In this document: positions 3,076-24,360 of the stretch, in pieces | Layout of the letters: every line of letters starts with the position of its first letter | Position numbering within the stretch: the first letter of the stretch is position 1 | Source of the DNA: Oscillospiraceae bacterium | GTDB taxonomy: Bacteria > Bacillota > Clostridia > Oscillospirales > Oscillospiraceae | NCBI GenBank assembly: GCA_045631645.1 | Contig: JAZQVC010000038.1 | Span: forward strand, 1,856-65,855 | Direction: 5' to 3' | DNA length: 64,000 nucleotides | Made by a program: the position numbers and the translations under genes | Notes under the pieces: generated by a model | The model's input: only the letters and a program-made list of their open reading frames with translations | Told to the model about the DNA's origin: nothing | Database searches by the model: none

Positions 3076-3312
3076 ATGTCGCCTGCATATAAACTCAGCG
3101 AACTTTCCATGGGCCGAAGCGCGCGCATTTGCGCAGTAGATCAAATCAAAAATGGCGAAAGACTTTCCGAACTTGGTTTTTACCCCGGAGCCACCGTAAG
3201 ACCCCTGTTTTCCGGGATTTTCGGGGAGCCTAAGGCCTATCTGGTGCAGAATGCGGTTATCGCCTTAAGGCGCACAGAAAGCGAAAAAATACTTGTAAAT
3301 GAATTACCCTGA
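3076..3312 (+). CDS. feoA: Ferrous iron transport protein A (FeoA)
   Basis: 78 aa SH3-like FeoA pattern (GxxxxIxxI...LxxLGFxPGxxV) immediately upstream of feoB. Confidence 0.85.
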   Translation: MSPAYKLSELSMGRSARICAVDQIKNGERLSELGFYPGATVRPLFSGIFGEPKAYLVQNAVIALRRTESEKILVNELP

Positions 3313-3338
3313 GAGCGCGTCAATGACGCGCTCTTTTA
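3311..3338 (+). terminator. GC-rich hairpin plus T-run between feoA and feoB (possible internal attenuator)
   Basis: agagcgcgtc-aat-gacgcgctct followed by ttttat. Confidence 0.5.
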
Positions 3339-3384
3339 TCATATTCAAAATTACGGCATATAATAACAAAGGAAGGGGGATTAT

Positions 3385-5172
3385 ATGCCGGATAAGGTTA
3401 TACTCGCAGGCAATCCCAATGTAGGGAAATCAACTATATTTAACGCACTGACCGGTCTTAGGCAACACACTGGCAACTGGACGGGCAAGACAGTGGGAAG
3501 CGCCTATGCCTATATTTCTTGCGGAAATAAAAGGATAATGATAATCGACACTCCCGGTACATATTCCCTTCTTGCCGATTCACCTGACGAAAAAGCTGCC
3601 GCAGAAACAATTATTAACACCGAATGTAATCATATAATATATATCTGCGACGCCTGTTGCCTTGAAAAAAGTTTATACCTTTTGCTGCAAATTATGGAAA
3701 AACGTGGCAATATCACCGTATGTCTGAACCTTATGGACGAAGCCGAAAGAAAAGGCGTCAAAGTTGACATCGATGCTCTCTCCCGTGAACTTTTACTTCC
3801 GGTCATACCCATGAGCGCCTCAAAAGGCTTAGGCCTCGATACGCTTCTAGCTACTGTTAACAAAGCGGGCTTCAGTGAAATTAAAGATTCCAAATCCGAC
3901 TTTGATATAATTGCGCTTAAAACAAGAGCTGCAGAAATTGCGAACAGATCCATCACATCATCAGATAAAGTAAAAATCAGCACTCTAGACAAACTGCTAT
4001 TCAGCAAGATTTTCGGTGTTCCGATTATGCTTGCAATGCTATTGGCAATTCTATGGATAAGCATCAGCGCCGCCAATGTCCCTTCTTCTCTTTTAAGCGC
4101 ATTATTTGACCATATAGGAACATTTTTAAGAAACTGCGCACAGACATTATCAATCCCAGAAATGCTGACAGGCGCGATAATTGACGGGATATACGGCACG
4201 GTGGCATGGGTTGTGTCTGTAATGTTGCCGCCTATGGCAATATTTTTCCCGCTCTTCACTTTACTTGAAGATTTCGGCCTTTTGCCGAGAATTTCCTTTA
4301 ATCTGGACCCTATTTTCAAATGCTGTGGCAGTTGCGGAAAGCAGGCTCTTACCATGTGTATGGGACTTGGCTGCAACGCTGTGGGTGTTACTTCCTGCGC
4401 AATTATTTCATCTCCTCGACAAAAACTTATAAGCATATTGACCAACAGCTTTATGCCCTGCAACGGAAGATTTCCTACTATCATTCTACTTGCGGCCATT
4501 TTATTTCCGGAAGGCGCTGATATAAGCGCACCAATAGCTGTAATGACAGTAATACTGCTGGGAGTCGCAGCTACACTCATAAGCACAAAATTACTCTCTC
4601 TTGTATATTGCAGGAACGAAACTATGTCCTTCACTTTAGAATTGCCGCCTTACCGAAAGCCGAAAATATGGGATACGCTGGTGCGTTCCTTTTATGATCG
4701 CACGCTGAAGGTTCTCTTTCGCGCAATCAAGGCCTCAGCCCCTGCAGGACTTATCATCTGGCTTTTAGCTAACATTAAAATCAATGACGCAAGCCTGATA
4801 TCCTATATATGCGGCTATTTGGAAGCGCCTGCTTCAGTTTTCGGATTAAACGGAATAATACTGTTTGCATTCATACTCGGTCTTCCAGCCAATGAAATTA
4901 TAATGCCAATAGTTCTTATGTGCTGCACATCAGGAAGCAGTCTTATGCTTATTCCCGATGCCCAGGAAATGGGAACTATCCTACAAAATAACGGTTGGAG
5001 CGGATGTACAATAATATGCGTTCTTATTTTCACTCTTTTTCACTGGCCCTGCGCTACAACGCTTATGACTATAAAAAAAGAATGCGGTAAAATGCGCTAT
5101 GTTGTACTCGCCGCACTTCTCCCGTGTCTCTGGGGATTTTTACTGTGCTATCTTGTAAATCTGATTATATAA
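3385..5172 (+). CDS. feoB: Ferrous iron transporter FeoB (G-domain plus permease)
   Basis: N-terminal GTPase G1 motif GNPNVGKST, DTPG, and a long polytopic C-terminus with conserved Cys-containing gate motifs. Confidence 0.95.
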   Translation: MPDKVILAGNPNVGKSTIFNALTGLRQHTGNWTGKTVGSAYAYISCGNKRIMIIDTPGTYSLLADSPDEKAAAETIINTECNHIIYICDACCLEKSLYLLLQIMEKRGNITVCLNLMDEAERKGVKVDIDALSRELLLPVIPMSASKGLGLDTLLATVNKAGFSEIKDSKSDFDIIALKTRAAEIANRSITSSDKVKISTLDKLLFSKIFGVPIMLAMLLAILWISISAANVPSSLLSALFDHIGTFLRNCAQTLSIPEMLTGAIIDGIYGTVAWVVSVMLPPMAIFFPLFTLLEDFGLLPRISFNLDPIFKCCGSCGKQALTMCMGLGCNAVGVTSCAIISSPRQKLISILTNSFMPCNGRFPTIILLAAILFPEGADISAPIAVMTVILLGVAATLISTKLLSLVYCRNETMSFTLELPPYRKPKIWDTLVRSFYDRTLKVLFRAIKASAPAGLIIWLLANIKINDASLISYICGYLEAPASVFGLNGIILFAFILGLPANEIIMPIVLMCCTSGSSLMLIPDAQEMGTILQNNGWSGCTIICVLIFTLFHWPCATTLMTIKKECGKMRYVVLAALLPCLWGFLLCYLVNLII

Positions 5173-10196: not shown

Positions 10197-10300
10197 CGTT
10201 TCTCACCTCGTATCAAGCTATTTTACTACCATTTATATATAATGTCAAAACCCTATTGCATAATTTATCGAATGTGGTATACTTGCATTAATAATACAGA

Positions 10301-10424
10301 TATCTTCAGGGCAGGGTGAAAATCCCGACCGGCGGTATAGTCCGCGAGCGCTTGCGCATGAATCGGTGTAACTCCGATACCGACAGTAATGACCATTGGT
10401 CAAAGTCTGGATGGAAGAAGATAA
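10301..10424 (+). promoter_or_regulatory. FMN riboswitch (RFN element)
   Basis: cttcagggcagggtgaaaatcccgaccggcggtatagtccgcgagcg ... ccgacagt ... agtctggatggaagaag matches the RFN core. P1 pairs tatcttc with gaagata. It sits upstream of a riboflavin ECF S-component gene. Confidence 0.9.
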
Positions 10425-10454
10425 TAGCGATTTTTTACCTTCGCTTAATCTTTG

Positions 10455-11100: not shown

Positions 11101-13380
11101 TTAAAGCTTGCTTCTAATTATCTTGCCGCTGGTGGTCTTGGGAAGTTCAGTGCGGAAGACAATGATTCTGGGATACTTATAGGGAGCGGTACGCTTCTTA
11201 ACATACTCCTGAATCTCAGCAGCGAGCTCATCGCTACCCTCATTTCCCTTAGTCAGAACGATGCTGGCTTTGACAACCTGTCCACGTACGGGATCGGGTT
11301 CAGCGGAGACACCGCATTCAAGAACATAGGGAAGTTCCATAATAACGGACTCGATTTCGAAAGGTCCGATTCTGTAACCGGAGGACTTGATAAGGTCATC
11401 AGCGCGGCCGACATACCAGAGGTAGTCATCCTCATCGCGCCATGCAAGGTCACCGGTATGGTAGAATCCGTCATGCCAAACAGCAGAGGTTTCGGCTTCA
11501 TTTTCAAAATAACCCATGAAAAGTCCGCAGGGAGCGCCATCGCTGACCTTTATGCAGATTTCACCGGGTTCGCCATCGGCAGCCTCTTCGCCTTCAGCAG
11601 TAAGCAGGTGGACATCATACAGGGGGTTAGGTTTACCCATAGAGCCGATTTTAGGCGCCATACCTACATAGTTACCGATAACGCAGGTGGTTTCGGTCTG
11701 ACCAAAACCTTCCATGATGGAGAGTCCGGTATGCTCGCGGAAGCGGTTGAAAACTTCGGGGTTCATTGCCTCGCCGGCAGTGGATGCATGCTTAATAGTG
11801 CTGAGGTCATATTTGCTGAGATCTTCTTTAATGAAGAAGCGATACATGGTGGGAGGCGCACAGAAGGTGGTTATGCCGTACTTCTTGAACATCGGCATAA
11901 TGTCATCGGCATGGAAACGGTCGAAGTCATAGACGAATACAGCTGCTTCGCAGAGCCACTGACCGAAGAGCTTGCCCCACATAGCCTTTGCCCAGCCGGT
12001 ATCGGAAATTGTGAGATGAAGTCCATCGGGATCAACACAGTGCCAATATCTTGCAGTAACGAAATGTCCGAGAGGGTATTTGCAGTTATGTGCTGCAAGC
12101 TTGGGATAGCCGGTAGAGCCGGAGGTAAATATCATCATCATAGGATCATCGCCGCAAATACTGTCCGCAGTGCGGGCGAAGCGGCTTGAATACATCTCGA
12201 ACTCATCGTCGAAGCAGTGCCATCCTTCGCACTTACCATTGACAACGATCATGTTTTTGATATTACCGTATTTTTCAATAGCGCTGCGGGATTCGATGGT
12301 GGATGTTCCGTCAGCAGTGCAGATAATATGCTTAACGTGAGCAACATCAAAGCGGTAGAGATAATCCTTCTCGAGAAGCTGGTCAACGGCCGGAATAGCA
12401 ACTGCGCCAAGTTTTTCAAGACCAATAAGTATGGGCCAGAACTGCCAGTTGCGGCGGAGAACAAGCATTACAGCATCGCCTTTTTCAATTCCCAGAGAGC
12501 GGAAATAGTTAGCAGCTCTGTTGCTCATCTTTTTCATTTCGCCAAATGTGAAACGATGCTCGCTCTTATCAGCGCCAATATGCACCATTGCAAGCTTGTC
12601 AGGCTGCTTTTCTGCTATTGCGTCAACAACATCGAAAGCGAAATTGAAACGATCGGTGTTTTTGAAAGAAATGCTCTTGAGAACACCGCTGCCGTCTTCA
12701 ACAGGCTCGATGAAGTTTTCCCAAATGCGCTTTTTGCCTGCTTCGCGGGTTGCGGTAATTGCAGGAACTGCGGCGCGCTTGGGCTGAACTTCCTCATCGG
12801 GAGTGAGAACAATAGCATAAAACTCGCAGTCGGTGCCATTGGTTGCAATGAGACCGTGAGGAGTTGTGGAGTCATAGTAAACGGTATCGCCGGGGCCAAG
12901 GATCTCGATATGATCACCAATCTGAACCTTCAGATAACCGCTTATAACGATATCGCACTCCTGACCTTCATGAGTGGTCAGTTCAATAGGCATCAGCTGA
13001 GCTTCAGGGGAAAACTTGCTGTAAACATAAAGAGGCTCTGCAATTCTGTTGCGGAATCTATGAGCAAGGTTATAGTAGGTCATTCCGTGGGCCTGCTCAA
13101 CGCGCTGTCCTTCCCCTCTTCTTGTAAGGGTATAGCTGCTGAGTCGGGGCGCAGTGCCTTCAATAAGCTCTGTAACGTCGACGCCAAGAGCCTGGGCGCA
13201 CATATAAAGGAATGCGAAGTCCAGATCCTGCTCGCCGGCCTCATAGGAAAGATACTCATCAAGAGATATGCCAATCTTCTTGGCCATATAATCTTCACTG
13301 TAACCAAGTATTGAGCGCAGTTCCTGAATACGACTGGCGATTTCCAGAATTTTGAACTGCAAAGCATTTTTTGTCTGCAT
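11101..13380 (-). CDS. Fusion protein: XRE-type HTH + cupin + AMP-forming (medium-chain-type) acyl-CoA ligase, paralog 1
   Basis: 759 aa. N-terminal HTH (LRSILGYSEDYMAKKIGISLDEYLSYEAGEQD), then a cupin (HEGQECDIVISGYLKVQIGD...PGDTVYYDSTTPHG). Ligase motifs follow: FTSGSTGYPK, GQTET, YHTGD, SSGYRIGPFEIES, SGKIIRSKL. Confidence 0.9.
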   Translation of the reverse strand: MQTKNALQFKILEIASRIQELRSILGYSEDYMAKKIGISLDEYLSYEAGEQDLDFAFLYMCAQALGVDVTELIEGTAPRLSSYTLTRRGEGQRVEQAHGMTYYNLAHRFRNRIAEPLYVYSKFSPEAQLMPIELTTHEGQECDIVISGYLKVQIGDHIEILGPGDTVYYDSTTPHGLIATNGTDCEFYAIVLTPDEEVQPKRAAVPAITATREAGKKRIWENFIEPVEDGSGVLKSISFKNTDRFNFAFDVVDAIAEKQPDKLAMVHIGADKSEHRFTFGEMKKMSNRAANYFRSLGIEKGDAVMLVLRRNWQFWPILIGLEKLGAVAIPAVDQLLEKDYLYRFDVAHVKHIICTADGTSTIESRSAIEKYGNIKNMIVVNGKCEGWHCFDDEFEMYSSRFARTADSICGDDPMMMIFTSGSTGYPKLAAHNCKYPLGHFVTARYWHCVDPDGLHLTISDTGWAKAMWGKLFGQWLCEAAVFVYDFDRFHADDIMPMFKKYGITTFCAPPTMYRFFIKEDLSKYDLSTIKHASTAGEAMNPEVFNRFREHTGLSIMEGFGQTETTCVIGNYVGMAPKIGSMGKPNPLYDVHLLTAEGEEAADGEPGEICIKVSDGAPCGLFMGYFENEAETSAVWHDGFYHTGDLAWRDEDDYLWYVGRADDLIKSSGYRIGPFEIESVIMELPYVLECGVSAEPDPVRGQVVKASIVLTKGNEGSDELAAEIQEYVKKRTAPYKYPRIIVFRTELPKTTSGKIIRSKL

Positions 13381-13414: not shown

Positions 13415-13664
13415 AAAAAAGTCCCCGGAAATCCGGGGACGGAATATACCGCGGTACCACCCTGGTTGCGGATTATAAATCCGCCACTTTTAGAGTCTTA
13501 TAAAACTCATATTGCTCTTACGCGGCTTCACGGGAGGCTCTACTAACCTTTCGGTTTTCTGCTCTCCGACTCCGGAGCGACAAGTTTCGGAAACAAACGC
13601 AATCTGCTTTCACCGACCGCAGACTCTCTGATGCGTCATAAATCCAACTCTCTCCATCATTGCC
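13415..13664 (-). promoter_or_regulatory. T-box leader 1 (tRNA-sensing transcription attenuator)
   Basis: Minus-strand RNA shows GGC-AAUGAU-GGAG (K-turn), AGAGU, the CAGAGAG AG-bulge, the GGUGAAAGC distal loop, the conserved T-box AACCAGGGUGGUACCGCGG (13449-13467) and the terminator GUCCCCGGAUUUCCGGGGAC + U6. Confidence 0.85.
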
Positions 13665-13698
13665 TTTAGTGTATTAAATTGATAAATAACTTTAAAAA

Positions 13699-13726
13699 GT
13701 ATAAACGATAGCCCAAATTTCGTCAA
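13699..13726 (-). promoter_or_regulatory. Putative sigma-A promoter for T-box leader 1
   Basis: Minus strand TTGACG-17 nt-TATACT, immediately upstream of Stem I. Confidence 0.45.
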
Positions 13727-16828: not shown

Positions 16829-17101
16829 AAAATAAAAACCCGCCTCAAAGATACAAGACCTTGAGACGAGCTAAACATTAACCCGCGGTACCACTCAAAT
16901 TGCGATTTGAAAAATCGCCACTCATCGGACTCTGTCAAGCCCTTGGCATTAACGCAGCCTTCACGTGGACTCTTACCCGATTTTACCCGCTCGGAATCCC
17001 GACTCGGAAGTGATGGACATATTGGCGTCTTCGTCATCCGCTTGCAGCAAAACGCGGACTCTCTGTGTCGGAAGGACATCCATGTCGTCTTCGTCATTGT
17101 C
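16829..17101 (-). promoter_or_regulatory. T-box leader 2 (tRNA-sensing transcription attenuator)
   Basis: Minus-strand RNA shows GAC-AAUGAC-GAAG (K-turn), the CAGAGAG AG-bulge, the conserved T-box AAUUUGAGUGGUACCGCGGG (16882-16901) and a terminator hairpin CGUCUCAAGG/CUUUGAGGCG + GGUUUUUAUUUU. Confidence 0.85.
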
Positions 17102-17111
17102 ATTTGAAGAT

Positions 17112-18003: not shown

Positions 18004-18024
18004 TTCACATATTTGGAGGTAATT

Positions 18025-18264
18025 ATGTTTAAGAGATTCAAAGTCCTATTTAACAGAGACAAGTGCAAGGGCTGCGAGCTTTGCGTAAACTTCTGCCCTA
18101 TGAAGATAATAGAAATGGACAAAAGCAGCGTCAACAGCAAGGGCTATCATCCCGCTTCCATTGACGAGGACAATATGGAGTGCTGCGTAGGCTGCTCCAG
18201 CTGCGCCCTGATGTGCCCTGACTGCTGCATCTCCATTTATCAGCTTGAGGAGGGTGAAGAATGA
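18025..18264 (+). CDS. 2-oxoacid:ferredoxin oxidoreductase delta subunit (2x[4Fe-4S] ferredoxin)
   Basis: CKGCELCVNFCP and CVGCSSCALMCP cluster motifs. ATG 7 nt after GGAGG. Confidence 0.85.
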   Translation: MFKRFKVLFNRDKCKGCELCVNFCPMKIIEMDKSSVNSKGYHPASIDEDNMECCVGCSSCALMCPDCCISIYQLEEGEE

Positions 18265-19337
18265 AAAAGATACTTATGAAAGGTAATGAGGCATTTGCTG
18301 AGGCTGCCATTCGCGCAGGCTGCAAGTGCTACTGCGGCTATCCCATCACCCCTCAGAATGAAATACCCGAATACATGAGCCACGAGCTTCCCAAGGCAGG
18401 CGGCGCATTTGTGCAGGCCGAAAGCGAGCTTGCAGCTGTCAATATGGCCTACGGCGCTGCAGCAAGCGGCGGAAGAGTTTTCATCTCCTCTTCCTCCCCC
18501 GGAATCAGCCTTATGCAGGAAGGTCTCGGCTTCATCTGTTCTGCCGAAGTTCCCCTTGTTGTACTCAACGTCTCCCGCGGCGGCCCCGGCGTTGGCGGCA
18601 TTCAGCCCGGTCAGGCAGACTATAATCAGGTTACCCGCGGCGGCTATAACGGCGACTGCAAGATCCCCGTATTTGCACCCGCAGGAATTCAGGAATGCGT
18701 TGACCTTATTTATGAATGCTTCGACCTCGCTGAAGAATACCGCAATCCTATGATGATTCTTGCCGACGGTATGATGGGACAGATGATGGAGCCCATTGTT
18801 CTTCCCGAAGCTAAGGGTATTACCCCTGTTGATAAAATCTCCGAGGAAAAGCCCTGGGCCATCACCGGCACAGACTCTCACCCCGGCAGAAATGTAATCT
18901 ATTCTCTGCGTATGGAGCCCGATGTTCTTGAAAAGCATGTTTATCATCTCTTCGAAAAGTACGAAAAAGCAGAGAAAGAGCTTGTGCGTTACAAATCTCA
19001 GGGTCTTGAAGATGCTGAAATTGTTTTTGTTGCATTCGGAACTATGAGCCGTCTTTGCGCAGAAGCAATTGAGCTTCTTGGCGAAAAAGGCATTAAGGCA
19101 GGTATGATCCGTCCTATCAGCCTTTGGCCCTTCCCCGACAAGGCTTTTGACGAAATCGGCGATAAGTGCAAAATTGTTATTTCCACTGAGCTCAGCATGG
19201 GTCAGATGCTTGCGGATGTTAAGTCCGCCGTGGCAGGTCGTTGGAAATGCGGTCTTATAAACCGCACCGGTGGCATTGTCCCCTCCTCTCTTGAGATCGT
19301 CGAGAGAGCAATCAAACTTTGGGAGGAAGCCAAATGA
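18261..19337 (+). CDS. 2-oxoacid:ferredoxin oxidoreductase alpha subunit
   Basis: 358 aa: MKGNEAFAEAAIRAGC..YPITPQNEI...QAESELAAVNMAYGAAASG, the typical Kor/Vor/Por alpha N-terminus. Overlaps delta by 4 nt. Confidence 0.9.
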   Translation: MKKILMKGNEAFAEAAIRAGCKCYCGYPITPQNEIPEYMSHELPKAGGAFVQAESELAAVNMAYGAAASGGRVFISSSSPGISLMQEGLGFICSAEVPLVVLNVSRGGPGVGGIQPGQADYNQVTRGGYNGDCKIPVFAPAGIQECVDLIYECFDLAEEYRNPMMILADGMMGQMMEPIVLPEAKGITPVDKISEEKPWAITGTDSHPGRNVIYSLRMEPDVLEKHVYHLFEKYEKAEKELVRYKSQGLEDAEIVFVAFGTMSRLCAEAIELLGEKGIKAGMIRPISLWPFPDKAFDEIGDKCKIVISTELSMGQMLADVKSAVAGRWKCGLINRTGGIVPSSLEIVERAIKLWEEAK

Positions 19338-20080
19338 AAACCATATTTGAACCCACAAAAGGCATCGTCCCTGTTGACAACAGCTACTGCCCCGGTTGCT
19401 CCCACGGCATTGCCCATCGTCTCATAATGGAATGCCTTGAAGAACGCGGCCGCCTTGGCAAAACCATCGGCGTTGTCCCCATCGGCTGCTCCATCAACGC
19501 TCATCACTTTATGAACATCGACATGTGCGAATCCACCCATGGACGCGCCCCTGCAATCGCCAGCGGTATTCGCCGCGTGCATCCCGACAAGACCGTTTTC
19601 ACCTATCAGGGTGACGGCGACCTTGCATCCATTGGCGCAGGCGAAATTGTACACGCAGCCCATCGCGGCGAGAAGTTTACTACTTTCTTTATCAATAACG
19701 CCATTTACGGTATGACTGGCGGCCAGATGGCTCCCACCACCCTTATCGGACAGAGAGCAACCACCGCTGTTGACGGTCGCACCAAGGAACAGGCAGGTCT
19801 GCCCCTCAGAGTAAGCGAAATGCTTGCAACCATTGACGGCGCTGTTTTTGTTGAGCGCGTTATGCTTAATAACCCCGCTAATATCCGCAAGGCAAAAAAG
19901 GCCATTCACAAGGCTTTGGATGTTCAGGACGCAGGTCTTGGTTTCAGCTTTGTTGAGTTTCTCTCCGTTTGTCCCACCAACTGGGGCTACAATCCTTATG
20001 ACGCCATAAAGTGGATGGAGAAGAACATGGCCGAATATTATCCCATTGGAAATTTCAAGTGCCCGGAGGAAATGAAGTAA
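19334..20080 (+). CDS. 2-oxoacid:ferredoxin oxidoreductase beta subunit (TPP-binding)
   Basis: CPGCSHG, GDGD and NNAIYGMTGGQ motifs. ATGA overlap with alpha. Confidence 0.9.
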   Translation: MKTIFEPTKGIVPVDNSYCPGCSHGIAHRLIMECLEERGRLGKTIGVVPIGCSINAHHFMNIDMCESTHGRAPAIASGIRRVHPDKTVFTYQGDGDLASIGAGEIVHAAHRGEKFTTFFINNAIYGMTGGQMAPTTLIGQRATTAVDGRTKEQAGLPLRVSEMLATIDGAVFVERVMLNNPANIRKAKKAIHKALDVQDAGLGFSFVEFLSVCPTNWGYNPYDAIKWMEKNMAEYYPIGNFKCPEEMK

Positions 20081-20081
20081 T

Positions 20082-20609
20082 ATGAAACGCAAACTCTTTT
20101 TCGCCGGAAGCGGCGGTCAGGGCACTCTCGCACTGGGCCAGATGATTGCAAAAGCCGCTATGGATGAGGGAAAAGAAGTCACCTGGCTTCCCTCCTATGG
20201 ACCTGAAATGCGCGGCGGCACCGCAAACTGCACTGTTGTTGTCTCCGACAAGGCTATAAGCTGCCCACTCATTAACGATGCCGATGTACTCGTCGCCATG
20301 AATCTCCCTTCCCTGCGCAAATTTGAGAACATGGTAAATCCCGGCGGCGTTATCCTTATGAACACTTCTCTTATTCCTGAAAAATGCCTTCGCGATGATG
20401 TCAAGGTTGTAGAAATTCCCTGCAATGACCTCGCAAAGGAACTGGGAAATGAAAAATGCGCTAACATCATTATGCTTGGCGCCATTTTGAAGGAAACCGA
20501 AATTGTTTCCCTCGAGACCATTCATGAGCAGCTTGAGCATATGTTCTCCGGACGTAAAGCCGCTTTCCTGCCCCTTAACAAGAAGGCACTTGACATCTAC
20601 ACCAAATGA
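20082..20609 (+). CDS. 2-oxoacid:ferredoxin oxidoreductase gamma subunit
   Basis: 175 aa: AGSGGQGTLALGQMIA...YGPEMRGGTANCTV, the gamma-subunit signature. Confidence 0.9.
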   Translation: MKRKLFFAGSGGQGTLALGQMIAKAAMDEGKEVTWLPSYGPEMRGGTANCTVVVSDKAISCPLINDADVLVAMNLPSLRKFENMVNPGGVILMNTSLIPEKCLRDDVKVVEIPCNDLAKELGNEKCANIIMLGAILKETEIVSLETIHEQLEHMFSGRKAAFLPLNKKALDIYTK

Positions 20610-24258: not shown

Positions 24259-24360
24259 GTGGCAGCGGATGCGGGAAAAGCATCGCACACCTATAAAGGT
24301 GCTTCGTCCTGAGACAACTCCCATCCTCAGGCACTTGACGCGCAGTTCCCTACTCTGTCC
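24259..24360 (-). promoter_or_regulatory. THF (tetrahydrofolate) riboswitch
   Basis: Minus-strand RNA ACAGAGUAGGGAACUGCGCGUCAAGUGCCUGAGGAUGGGAGUUGUCUCAGGACGAAGCACC...GCAUCCGCUGCC closely parallels the folT-motif THF aptamer as I recall it (AGAGUAG..CGCGUUAAGUG..GAAUGGGAUG..ACGAAGC..GCAUCCGCU). Confidence 0.85.

Follow-up and report, generated by a model that had tools for sequence, protein, structure and literature searches.

The analysed window, a stretch of 64,000 nucleotides (nt) from an Oscillospiraceae bacterium, contains on its minus strand a gene (11101..13380) for a protein of 759 amino acids with the Pfam domains HTH_XRE, Cupin_2, AMP-binding and AMP-binding_C, a helix-turn-helix (HTH)-cupin module fused to an acyl-coenzyme A (CoA) ligase. 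About 1.1 kb upstream of this gene, and behind a T-box leader of its own (16859..17106, minus strand), lies a paralog of 768 amino acids with 62% identity (16791-14485, minus strand). Divergent from the paralog, an operon on the plus strand (18013..20609) encodes a four-subunit 2-oxoacid:ferredoxin oxidoreductase of the VOR type. The subject of this analysis is the leader of the 759-residue ligase (13669-13411, minus strand), which is very probably a transcription-attenuating T-box riboswitch specific for tRNA-Val, with GUC as its specifier.

The leader belongs to the T-box family. It matches Rfam family RF00230 at 13432-13669 on the minus strand, to which all leader coordinates below refer, over the full model (1-219) with 101.5 bits and E = 3e-21 (cmscan), the gathering score of the family being 93 bits. 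The Rfam alignment of 13432..13669 places Stem I, Stem II with its S-turn, the IIA/B region, Stem III and the antiterminator. In the preliminary description of this DNA the element had been given as 13415-13664; the element is present, but the Rfam match extends about 5 nt further at its 5' end. The Stem I helices, kink-turn (K-turn), loop strands and candidate triplets of that description were all found where it had put them. Stem I (13568..13664, from the sequence and the Rfam alignment) opens with a base helix GGC/GUC (13664-13662 with 13570-13568), which is followed by a K-turn AAUGAU/GGA (13661-13656 with 13573-13571) and a 4-bp helix GGAG/CUCC (13655-13652 with 13577-13574). Above this helix lies the specifier loop, with AGAGU (13651-13647) as its 5' strand and GAAACUUGUCG (13588-13578) as its 3' strand, all read directly from the sequence. 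An AG bulge AGAGA (13629-13625) and the distal loop GCGGUCGGUGAAAGC (approximately 13618-13608) were assigned from the sequence together with the Rfam alignment. The elements of Stem I that form the platform for the tRNA elbow, i.e. the basal K-turn, the specifier bulge, the AG bulge and the distal loop, are thus all present.

Further downstream the Rfam alignment places the Stem III hairpin GGCGGAU...AUCCGC (13468..13485) and, together with a fold of 13432-13467, the antiterminator (13436..13462), which consists of helix A1 (GGG/CCC), helix A2 (GCGG/CCGU) and a 7-nt bulge UGGUACC. The T-box sequence is AGGGUGGUACCGCG, its bulge motif reads UGGU (13459-13456), and the variable base N is U. A terminator scan found an intrinsic terminator GUCCCCGG/CCGGGGAC followed by the U-run UUUUUUAUUU, with its stem at 13440-13421 and the U-run reaching to 13411. 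The stem comprises eight base pairs, seven of them G-C, around a 4-nt loop, and the fold energy of the region is -23 kcal/mol (z = -2.76). The antiterminator and the terminator are mutually exclusive because the 3' strand of the former and the 5' arm of the latter share GUCCC. The minimum free energy folds of Stem I and of the antiterminator, each taken alone, were uninformative (z = +0.36 and +0.47), and covariation was used instead. Approximately 30 nt upstream of the leader a consensus scan found the promoter-like sequence TTGACG-17-TATACT (13698..13726, minus strand, 10 of 12 matches); as the region contains two such sites, the same number as expected from shuffled sequence, it is to be read as a consensus match only.

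The register of the specifier was read in several ways. In the Rfam alignment the codon columns hold GUC (13579..13581, gac on the plus strand), which would be read by the anticodon GAC, and the following purine column holds G (13578), while CUU appears as a 3-nt insertion after GAAA. According to the rule used by TBDB the specifier is formed by nt 2-4 from the 3' end of the bulge by default, with shifts of ±1 only (PMC7778990). The default (+0) frame yields GUC, and the triplets ACU (13585-13583) and CUU (13584-13582) fall outside the 5-nt window of this rule. A role for the purine after the specifier has been described (PMC7583486). The preliminary description had called GUC (Val) tentatively, and had named a structural alignment to RF00230, a specifier-prediction method and a comparison of orthologous leaders as ways to check the call. 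The alignment puts no other triplet into the codon columns, the annotation rule arrives at the same triplet, and the orthologous leaders and the tRNA discriminator described below likewise support the call.

To compare orthologous leaders, 151 genomes of the same family, a sample drawn by the search tool, were searched at the protein level. Homologs of the ligase occur in 68 of them, often as tandem pairs. Leaders were extracted by a parser and, where it failed, read by hand. Rfam alignments served to check others, among them leaders initially missed, and gave the same register each time (GUA-A, GUC-G, CUC-G, AUC-A and AUC-G). Among the Val-type leaders, which precede genes like that of the 759-residue ligase in 22 genomes, the specifier position holds GUC in 15 and GUA in seven, and the base that follows is G in 14 and A in eight. 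Other homologous leaders carry AUC (36 leaders) or CUC (one leader), and the base N of the bulge is U wherever the motif could be read. A scan of genome contigs added near-orthologs with 73-96% identity from rumen and gut Oscillospiraceae and 'Ruminococcaceae' metagenome-assembled genomes (MAGs). All 22 of these that retain a T-box have GUC followed by a purine, with the window's CUU replaced, depending on the lineage, by CGU, CCU, UCU, CCG, UAA or UUU. Taken together, all 44 related Val-type leaders show GUC or GUA and then a purine, in MAG samples that are phylogenetically non-independent. At the specifier position these leaders thus alternate between GUC and GUA only, and the registers of ACU and CUU vary freely. 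A valine specifier would be expected to show just such a synonymous alternation at a fixed position.

Some homologs depart from this pattern in their leaders. The one CUC leader (L041, G060:C31, T-box at 3775-4019, minus strand) combines the Leu specifier CUC-G with a downstream ligase whose pocket residues (Ala, Val, Met) are Val-like. This single case would fit isobutyrate feeding leucine synthesis via 2-oxoisovalerate. Two 77%-identical orthologs from the rumen 'Ruminococcaceae' MAGs RUG10684 and RUG13571 (L092 and L093) have no Stems I to III; their leader, about 150 nt upstream of the gene, consists of a promoter, a T-box-like AUGGUACCGC and a terminator GUCCCCGG...CCGGGGAC with U-run only. 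Two others (L094, L097) have no leader at all.

The covariation analysis was based on an RNAalifold consensus of 26 related Val-type Stem I sequences and was independent of the leader parser. The base helix and the K-turn gap reappear in the consensus, as does the 4-bp helix, which alternates between GGAG/CUCC and GAAG/CUUC through eight compensatory changes from G-C to A-U. It further predicts a 3-bp helix between columns 16-18 and 91-93 of the alignment (A1), which in the window pairs AGU (13647..13649) with ACU (13583..13585). In each of its three pairs both sides have changed, and 91% of the helix cells are paired across the 26 sequences. For the whole Stem I structure 96.9% of cells are paired, compared to 83.4% in shuffled alignments; none of 500 shuffles reaches 96.9%, and registers slid by one to three columns give at most 51%. 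As the 3-bp helix takes up ACU completely, and with it two of the three bases of CUU, the 3' strand of the bulge is reduced to U-GUC-G. The preliminary description had noted as a caveat that the loop is longer than usual. Its letters are as described, but the difficulty is largely resolved by the AGU/ACU helix. The arrangement suggests a specifier bulge that deviates locally from the canonical S-turn. In the Val-type ligase leaders the 3-bp helix closes the bulge to AG on the 5' side and N-codon-R on the 3' side, while the usual S-turn GAA of the specifier loop is displaced or, in many orthologs, absent. It is possible that the Val-type specifier bulge represents a structural variant of Stem I.

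The tRNA genes and the other T-boxes of the host were examined in the assembly that contains the window (1.98 Mb in 51 contigs, 96.6% complete), in which all 11 T-box matches were read. ARAGORN finds tRNA-Val genes with the anticodons GAC, UAC and CAC, the first of them at C13:24132-24207, so that a tRNA matching the specifier is encoded. All three end in ACCA and hence carry A73. The five tRNA-Leu genes, a GAG anticodon among them, also carry A73. The three tRNA-Thr genes, including tRNA-Thr(GGU), end in UCCA and hence carry U73, and the tRNA-Ser genes carry G73. The UGGU of the bulge is thus compatible with Val and Leu, whereas Thr is excluded. The argument of the preliminary description, which led from UGGU over A73 to tRNA-Val, stands with all tRNA-Val genes and is sharpened by the U73 of tRNA-Thr.

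The other T-boxes of the genome provide a local standard for the register, i.e. that the codon and one further base stand directly 5' of the 4-bp helix. The leader of valS (C5:90030-90239) reads GAA-G-GUC-G with the bulge UGGU, and the remaining ones are those of thrS (ACC-A, UGGA), cysE (UGC-G, UGGA), trpB (UGG-G, UGGC), pheS (UUC-G, UGGU), a gene of the metallo-beta-lactamase (MBL) fold together with tyrS (UAC-A, UGGU), a leuA-like gene (CUC-U, UGGU) and alaS (GCC-A, UGGU), along with the window's second leader (AUC-A, UGGU) and a hisS-aspS leader, which is treated below. In at least eight of the other 10 T-boxes (those of valS, thrS, cysE, trpB, pheS, tyrS, the leuA-like gene and the Ile paralog) the rule, the downstream gene and the discriminator agree. 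A shift of the register by three or four bases is without precedent among the T-boxes of this genome.

A functional specifier would be expected to vary in step with the enzyme that it controls, which provides an independent cross-check. For this purpose 50 fused ligases were labelled by the specifier of their leader, 21 as Val-type and 29 as Ile-type. At residue 464 (codon 11991-11993), which lies within the motif DTGW-A(464)-KAMW of the window's ligase, all 21 Val-type sequences have Ala and all 29 Ile-type sequences have Gly, and this is the sole alignment column with perfect separation. The next most discriminating residues are 566/567, after QTETT, and 467. The near-orthologs with GUC leaders all have DTGWAK. 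The nearest solved structure is 3ETC, the Macs protein of Methanosarcina acetivorans (MacsMa), with 604 bits over the whole ligase domain. The tryptophan W468 of DTGWAKAMW aligns with the W of SGWGKCVW in 3ETC, which has the chain index 282 and the native number 259 (offset 23, derived from Gly459-Tyr460-Lys461). Residue 464 is therefore located four positions before the conserved pocket tryptophan W468, the equivalent of Trp259 in MacsMa. For MacsMa, 2-methylbutyrate is the preferred substrate and Trp259 a critical residue of the pocket (PMC10455477). At the discriminating position MacsMa, with its preference for this larger acid, has Gly.

Other readings of the leader have to be weighed against GUC. 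The preliminary description had offered CUU (Leu) and ACU (Thr) as alternatives, and neither held up, as both are variable among relatives and lie wholly (ACU) or with two of three bases (CUU) within the covarying helix, with the U73 of tRNA-Thr as a further obstacle to the second. A leucine specifier CUU, or a dual Val/Leu leader reading the adjacent CUU-GUC, would find some justification in the fact that 2-oxoisovalerate formed from isobutyrate also feeds leucine synthesis. CUU follows GAA-A after one base, and the Rfam consensus shows the codon at this distance from the S-turn GAA; the A73 of tRNA-Leu and the existing GAG anticodon fit, the L041 leader demonstrates that Leu-responsive versions of the system exist, and CUUGUC recurs in four of the 22 leaders. 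The same register, though, holds UUU in nine of the 22 Val-type leaders, CUU in four, CCU in three, UCA in two and UUA, UCU, UAU and CGU in one each, and these eight forms mark a U-rich linker instead of a codon. A 92%-identical ortholog has CGU there and keeps GUC. With C13584 and U13583 inside the 3-bp helix, CUU treated as an insertion by Rfam and lying outside the TBDB window, and the host's own Leu T-box presenting CUC at the canonical register, we consider a leucine specifier highly unlikely. The probability of a threonine specifier is practically negligible: ACU stands directly 3' of the GAA and could be read by tRNA-Thr(GGU) through wobble, but it forms the 3' strand of the helix with AGU and occurs in two of the 22 orthologous leaders only, no tRNA-Thr could pair its U73 with the U of UGGU, and the host's thrS T-box uses ACC-A together with UGGA.

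A frame shifted by one base would turn GUC into UGU (Cys, -1) or UCG (Ser, +1). The hisS-aspS leader seems to use such a -1 frame, UGU is conserved in 19 of the 22 leaders, and for the +1 frame a tRNA-Ser(CGA) exists whose G73 could wobble with U. The +1 frame, on the other side, yields UAG or UAA in seven of the 22 leaders and cannot be a sense specifier, and the -1 frame yields AGU in three leaders. The cysE T-box combines UGC with UGGA, which implies U73 for tRNA-Cys and does not fit UGGU, and nothing ties an acyl-CoA ligase and a VOR to Cys or Ser. A shifted frame thus retains an extremely small probability. One may also ask whether the leader is a decaying T-box relic without regulatory function, the gene being controlled otherwise, e.g. 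by its own HTH-cupin domain. That close orthologs have lost Stems I to III (L092, L093) or the whole leader (L094, L097), and that seven homologs in the family are without a T-box, would agree with such a decay. The leader in the window, in contrast, exceeds the Rfam cut-off, has lost none of its domains and retains a strong terminator, leaders of this kind are conserved with compensatory changes across dozens of genomes, and the specifier covaries with an enzyme residue, which leaves the relic a very slim chance.

Several observations weigh against the valine reading or the function attached to it. The specifier bulge is non-canonical: the S-turn GAA is 4 nt away from the codon and is not conserved in the orthologs, and the local three-dimensional architecture of the bulge is uncertain. 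The conserved UGU of the -1 frame is excluded only by the discriminator and by the missing link to cysteine. In the T-box of hisS-aspS (C14:38117-38319, L009, 63 bits) the codon GAU (Asp) fits its bulge UGGC only in the -1 frame; the specifier bulge reads GAA-GAU-A-G before the helix, and this is the sole exception to the register among the 11 T-boxes of the genome. The register rule is consequently not absolute, and a shift by one base is possible. The seven family homologs without a T-box count on the same side. The ligase falls below the equivalog cut-off of MbcS (405.9 compared to 850 bits) and is not filed as an MbcS equivalog. Finally, Val-type and Ile-type ligases (L012-L081) interleave on the protein tree with at least eight changes of label and form no clean clades.

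This interleaving made a phylogenetically controlled test possible. All eight independent Val/Ile contrasts go with Ala/Gly at residue 464 (sign test, p = 0.008), on a tree that included the residue-464 column itself as one of approximately 548. The window's Val clade is sister to the window's Ile clade with 99% support. The expectation of two clades, one for each type of ligase, is contradicted by the protein tree. The interleaving implies repeated duplication with switching of the specifier, or old gene conversion between tandem copies. Recent gene conversion between the two paralogs of the window is not evident, as the third-position identity among identical residues is 0.25-0.77 and there is no near-identical tract.

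With GUC as the specifier, the gene behind the leader can be placed in a metabolic context. The best NCBIfam model for the 759-residue ligase is MbcS (405.9 bits). MbcS activates 2-methylbutyrate and isobutyrate (PMC10026030). The protein is predicted to work like a member of the MbcS/Macs-type family, and the ligase most likely activates isobutyrate to isobutyryl-CoA. The second T-box leader, in front of the paralog, reaches 84.4 bits in cmscan, below the gathering score of 93, and its specifier is AUC-A (Ile), the same position being occupied by AUC in the 36 homologous leaders mentioned above. In the neighbouring VOR operon the alpha subunit passes the cut-off of the VorB subfamily (469.6 compared to 399 bits), and the delta, beta and gamma subunits were matched as well. 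No IlvC, IlvD or large subunit of acetolactate synthase (ilvB) was found above cut-off in the 96.6%-complete genome, with models that matched in 14 of 14 control genomes. The contig with the Leu T-box and the leuA-like gene also encodes a class IV (IlvE-like) aminotransferase. Among the 151 genomes of the family, ilvD is found above cut-off in 81, i.e. in two of the 22 with a Val-T-box ligase (G150, G071) compared to 79 of the other 129, a pattern that offers support and is not a statistical test, the genomes being related and some of them incomplete. Salvage of isobutyrate to valine is, on balance, the probable function of the ligase together with the VOR.

The following sequence of events may be proposed. 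When valine is scarce, the anticodon of uncharged tRNA-Val(GAC) would pair with GUC at 13581-13579, held within the compact bulge of Stem I and with G13578 stacked beneath. The free 3' end of the tRNA, ACCA, could then pair with UGGU (13459-13456) in the bulge of the antiterminator. This pairing would stabilise the antiterminator against the overlapping terminator (13440-13421) and allow the polymerase to read into the gene at 13380. Charged tRNA-Val would make no contact through its 3' end, and the terminator would form. We infer from these features that tRNA-dependent read-through takes place in vivo. The HTH-cupin-acyl-CoA ligase would convert isobutyrate to isobutyryl-CoA, the neighbouring VOR could carboxylate this reductively to 2-oxoisovalerate, and the IlvE-like aminotransferase might complete the route to valine, which would in this way replace the acetolactate pathway.

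Related arrangements occur in other genomes. In five loci (L075-L079 in G044, G081, G009, G077 and G066) two adjacent genes encode the HTH-cupin module and the ligase separately, and where the upstream region is readable an Ile T-box precedes the HTH-cupin gene. Full-length HTH-cupin-ligase fusions with 43-47% identity and the Gly-type motif DTGWGKAVW exist in rumen MAGs of Coriobacteriaceae and Atopobiaceae (L113-L137), and no T-box core motif was found upstream of these fusions in Actinobacteria. One T-box-less homolog (L069, G028) is followed immediately downstream by two tandem matches to riboswitches of the cyclic di-GMP-I type (3200-3416). Elsewhere in the window two further riboswitches score above the Rfam cut-off, a flavin mononucleotide (FMN) riboswitch at 10298-10426 (plus strand), before a gene for a RibU-like energy-coupling factor (ECF) transporter, and a tetrahydrofolate (THF) riboswitch at 24261-24359 (minus strand).

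As an RNA the leader is a member of a well-known family with a standard mechanism. It shares RF00230, the UGGU/A73 pairing and the logic of terminator and antiterminator with the leaders of valS, both in the host and among the Val T-boxes of Firmicutes, and like the host's valS leader it has GUC-G directly 5' of the 4-bp helix above the K-turn. Unlike these leaders it controls an acyl-CoA ligase fusion and not an aminoacyl-tRNA synthetase, and its bulge lacks the canonical GAA-N-codon spacing and appears to be closed by the extra covarying 3-bp helix. T-box control of branched-chain amino acid biosynthesis is known from the leader of the ilv-leu operon in B. subtilis. As in such branched-chain amino acid T-boxes, supply would be gated by uncharged tRNA. 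The gated step differs from that of ilv-leu-type leaders: here an exogenous short branched acid would be activated, and the search for ilvB, ilvC and ilvD in the genome found none of them above cut-off.

The enzyme resembles Macs (3ETC) and the MbcS of S. aureus as a homolog of ligases for small branched acids, with Trp259 of MacsMa conserved as W468. It differs from both by its N-terminal HTH-cupin module and from MacsMa, which has Gly, by the Ala four residues before the pocket tryptophan. While MbcS feeds fatty-acid synthesis, the context in the window (T-box, VOR, no ilvBCD found) suggests a role in the synthesis of amino acids. That rumen anaerobes carboxylate branched short-chain acids reductively to form branched-chain amino acids is classical physiology. 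The route proposed here follows the same order, from the acid over the acyl-CoA and, by means of VOR, the 2-oxoacid to the amino acid, and it would operate in the same habitat, the MAGs being those of rumen and gut Oscillospiraceae. Known T-box targets comprise aminoacyl-tRNA synthetases, genes of the ilv/leu pathways and transporters. The texts of two surveys (PMC2494555, PMC3766115) do not mention CoA ligases or ferredoxin oxidoreductases. In the searchable literature we found no T-box in front of an acyl-CoA ligase or tied to reductive carboxylation, although an earlier mention is possible.

The valine specifier is mainly a result of annotation, and it labels the physiological role of an otherwise generic AMP-binding enzyme. 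The Val leader, its Ile twin, the VOR and the missing ilvBCD together indicate that isobutyrate and 2-methylbutyrate may be activated in uncultured Oscillospiraceae when tRNA-Val or tRNA-Ile is uncharged. It is an evenly balanced proposition, put forward from comparative sequence analysis, that the T-boxes of rumen and gut Oscillospiraceae form a small regulon for the salvage of branched short-chain acids that replaces ilvBCD, in which the specifier (Val GUC/GUA, Ile AUC, rarely Leu CUC) would predict the substrate of the HTH-cupin-ligase, and sensor and enzyme would have co-evolved, the specifier and residue 464 having changed or persisted jointly over at least eight independent lineage contrasts. 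The exact Ala/Gly correlation represents a testable determinant of specificity for this ligase family. If the proposal is true, acid-CoA ligases would join the list of T-box targets, and it would be explained at the level of genes why many anaerobes of the rumen and gut need branched-chain volatile fatty acids, as has long been known for rumen bacteria.

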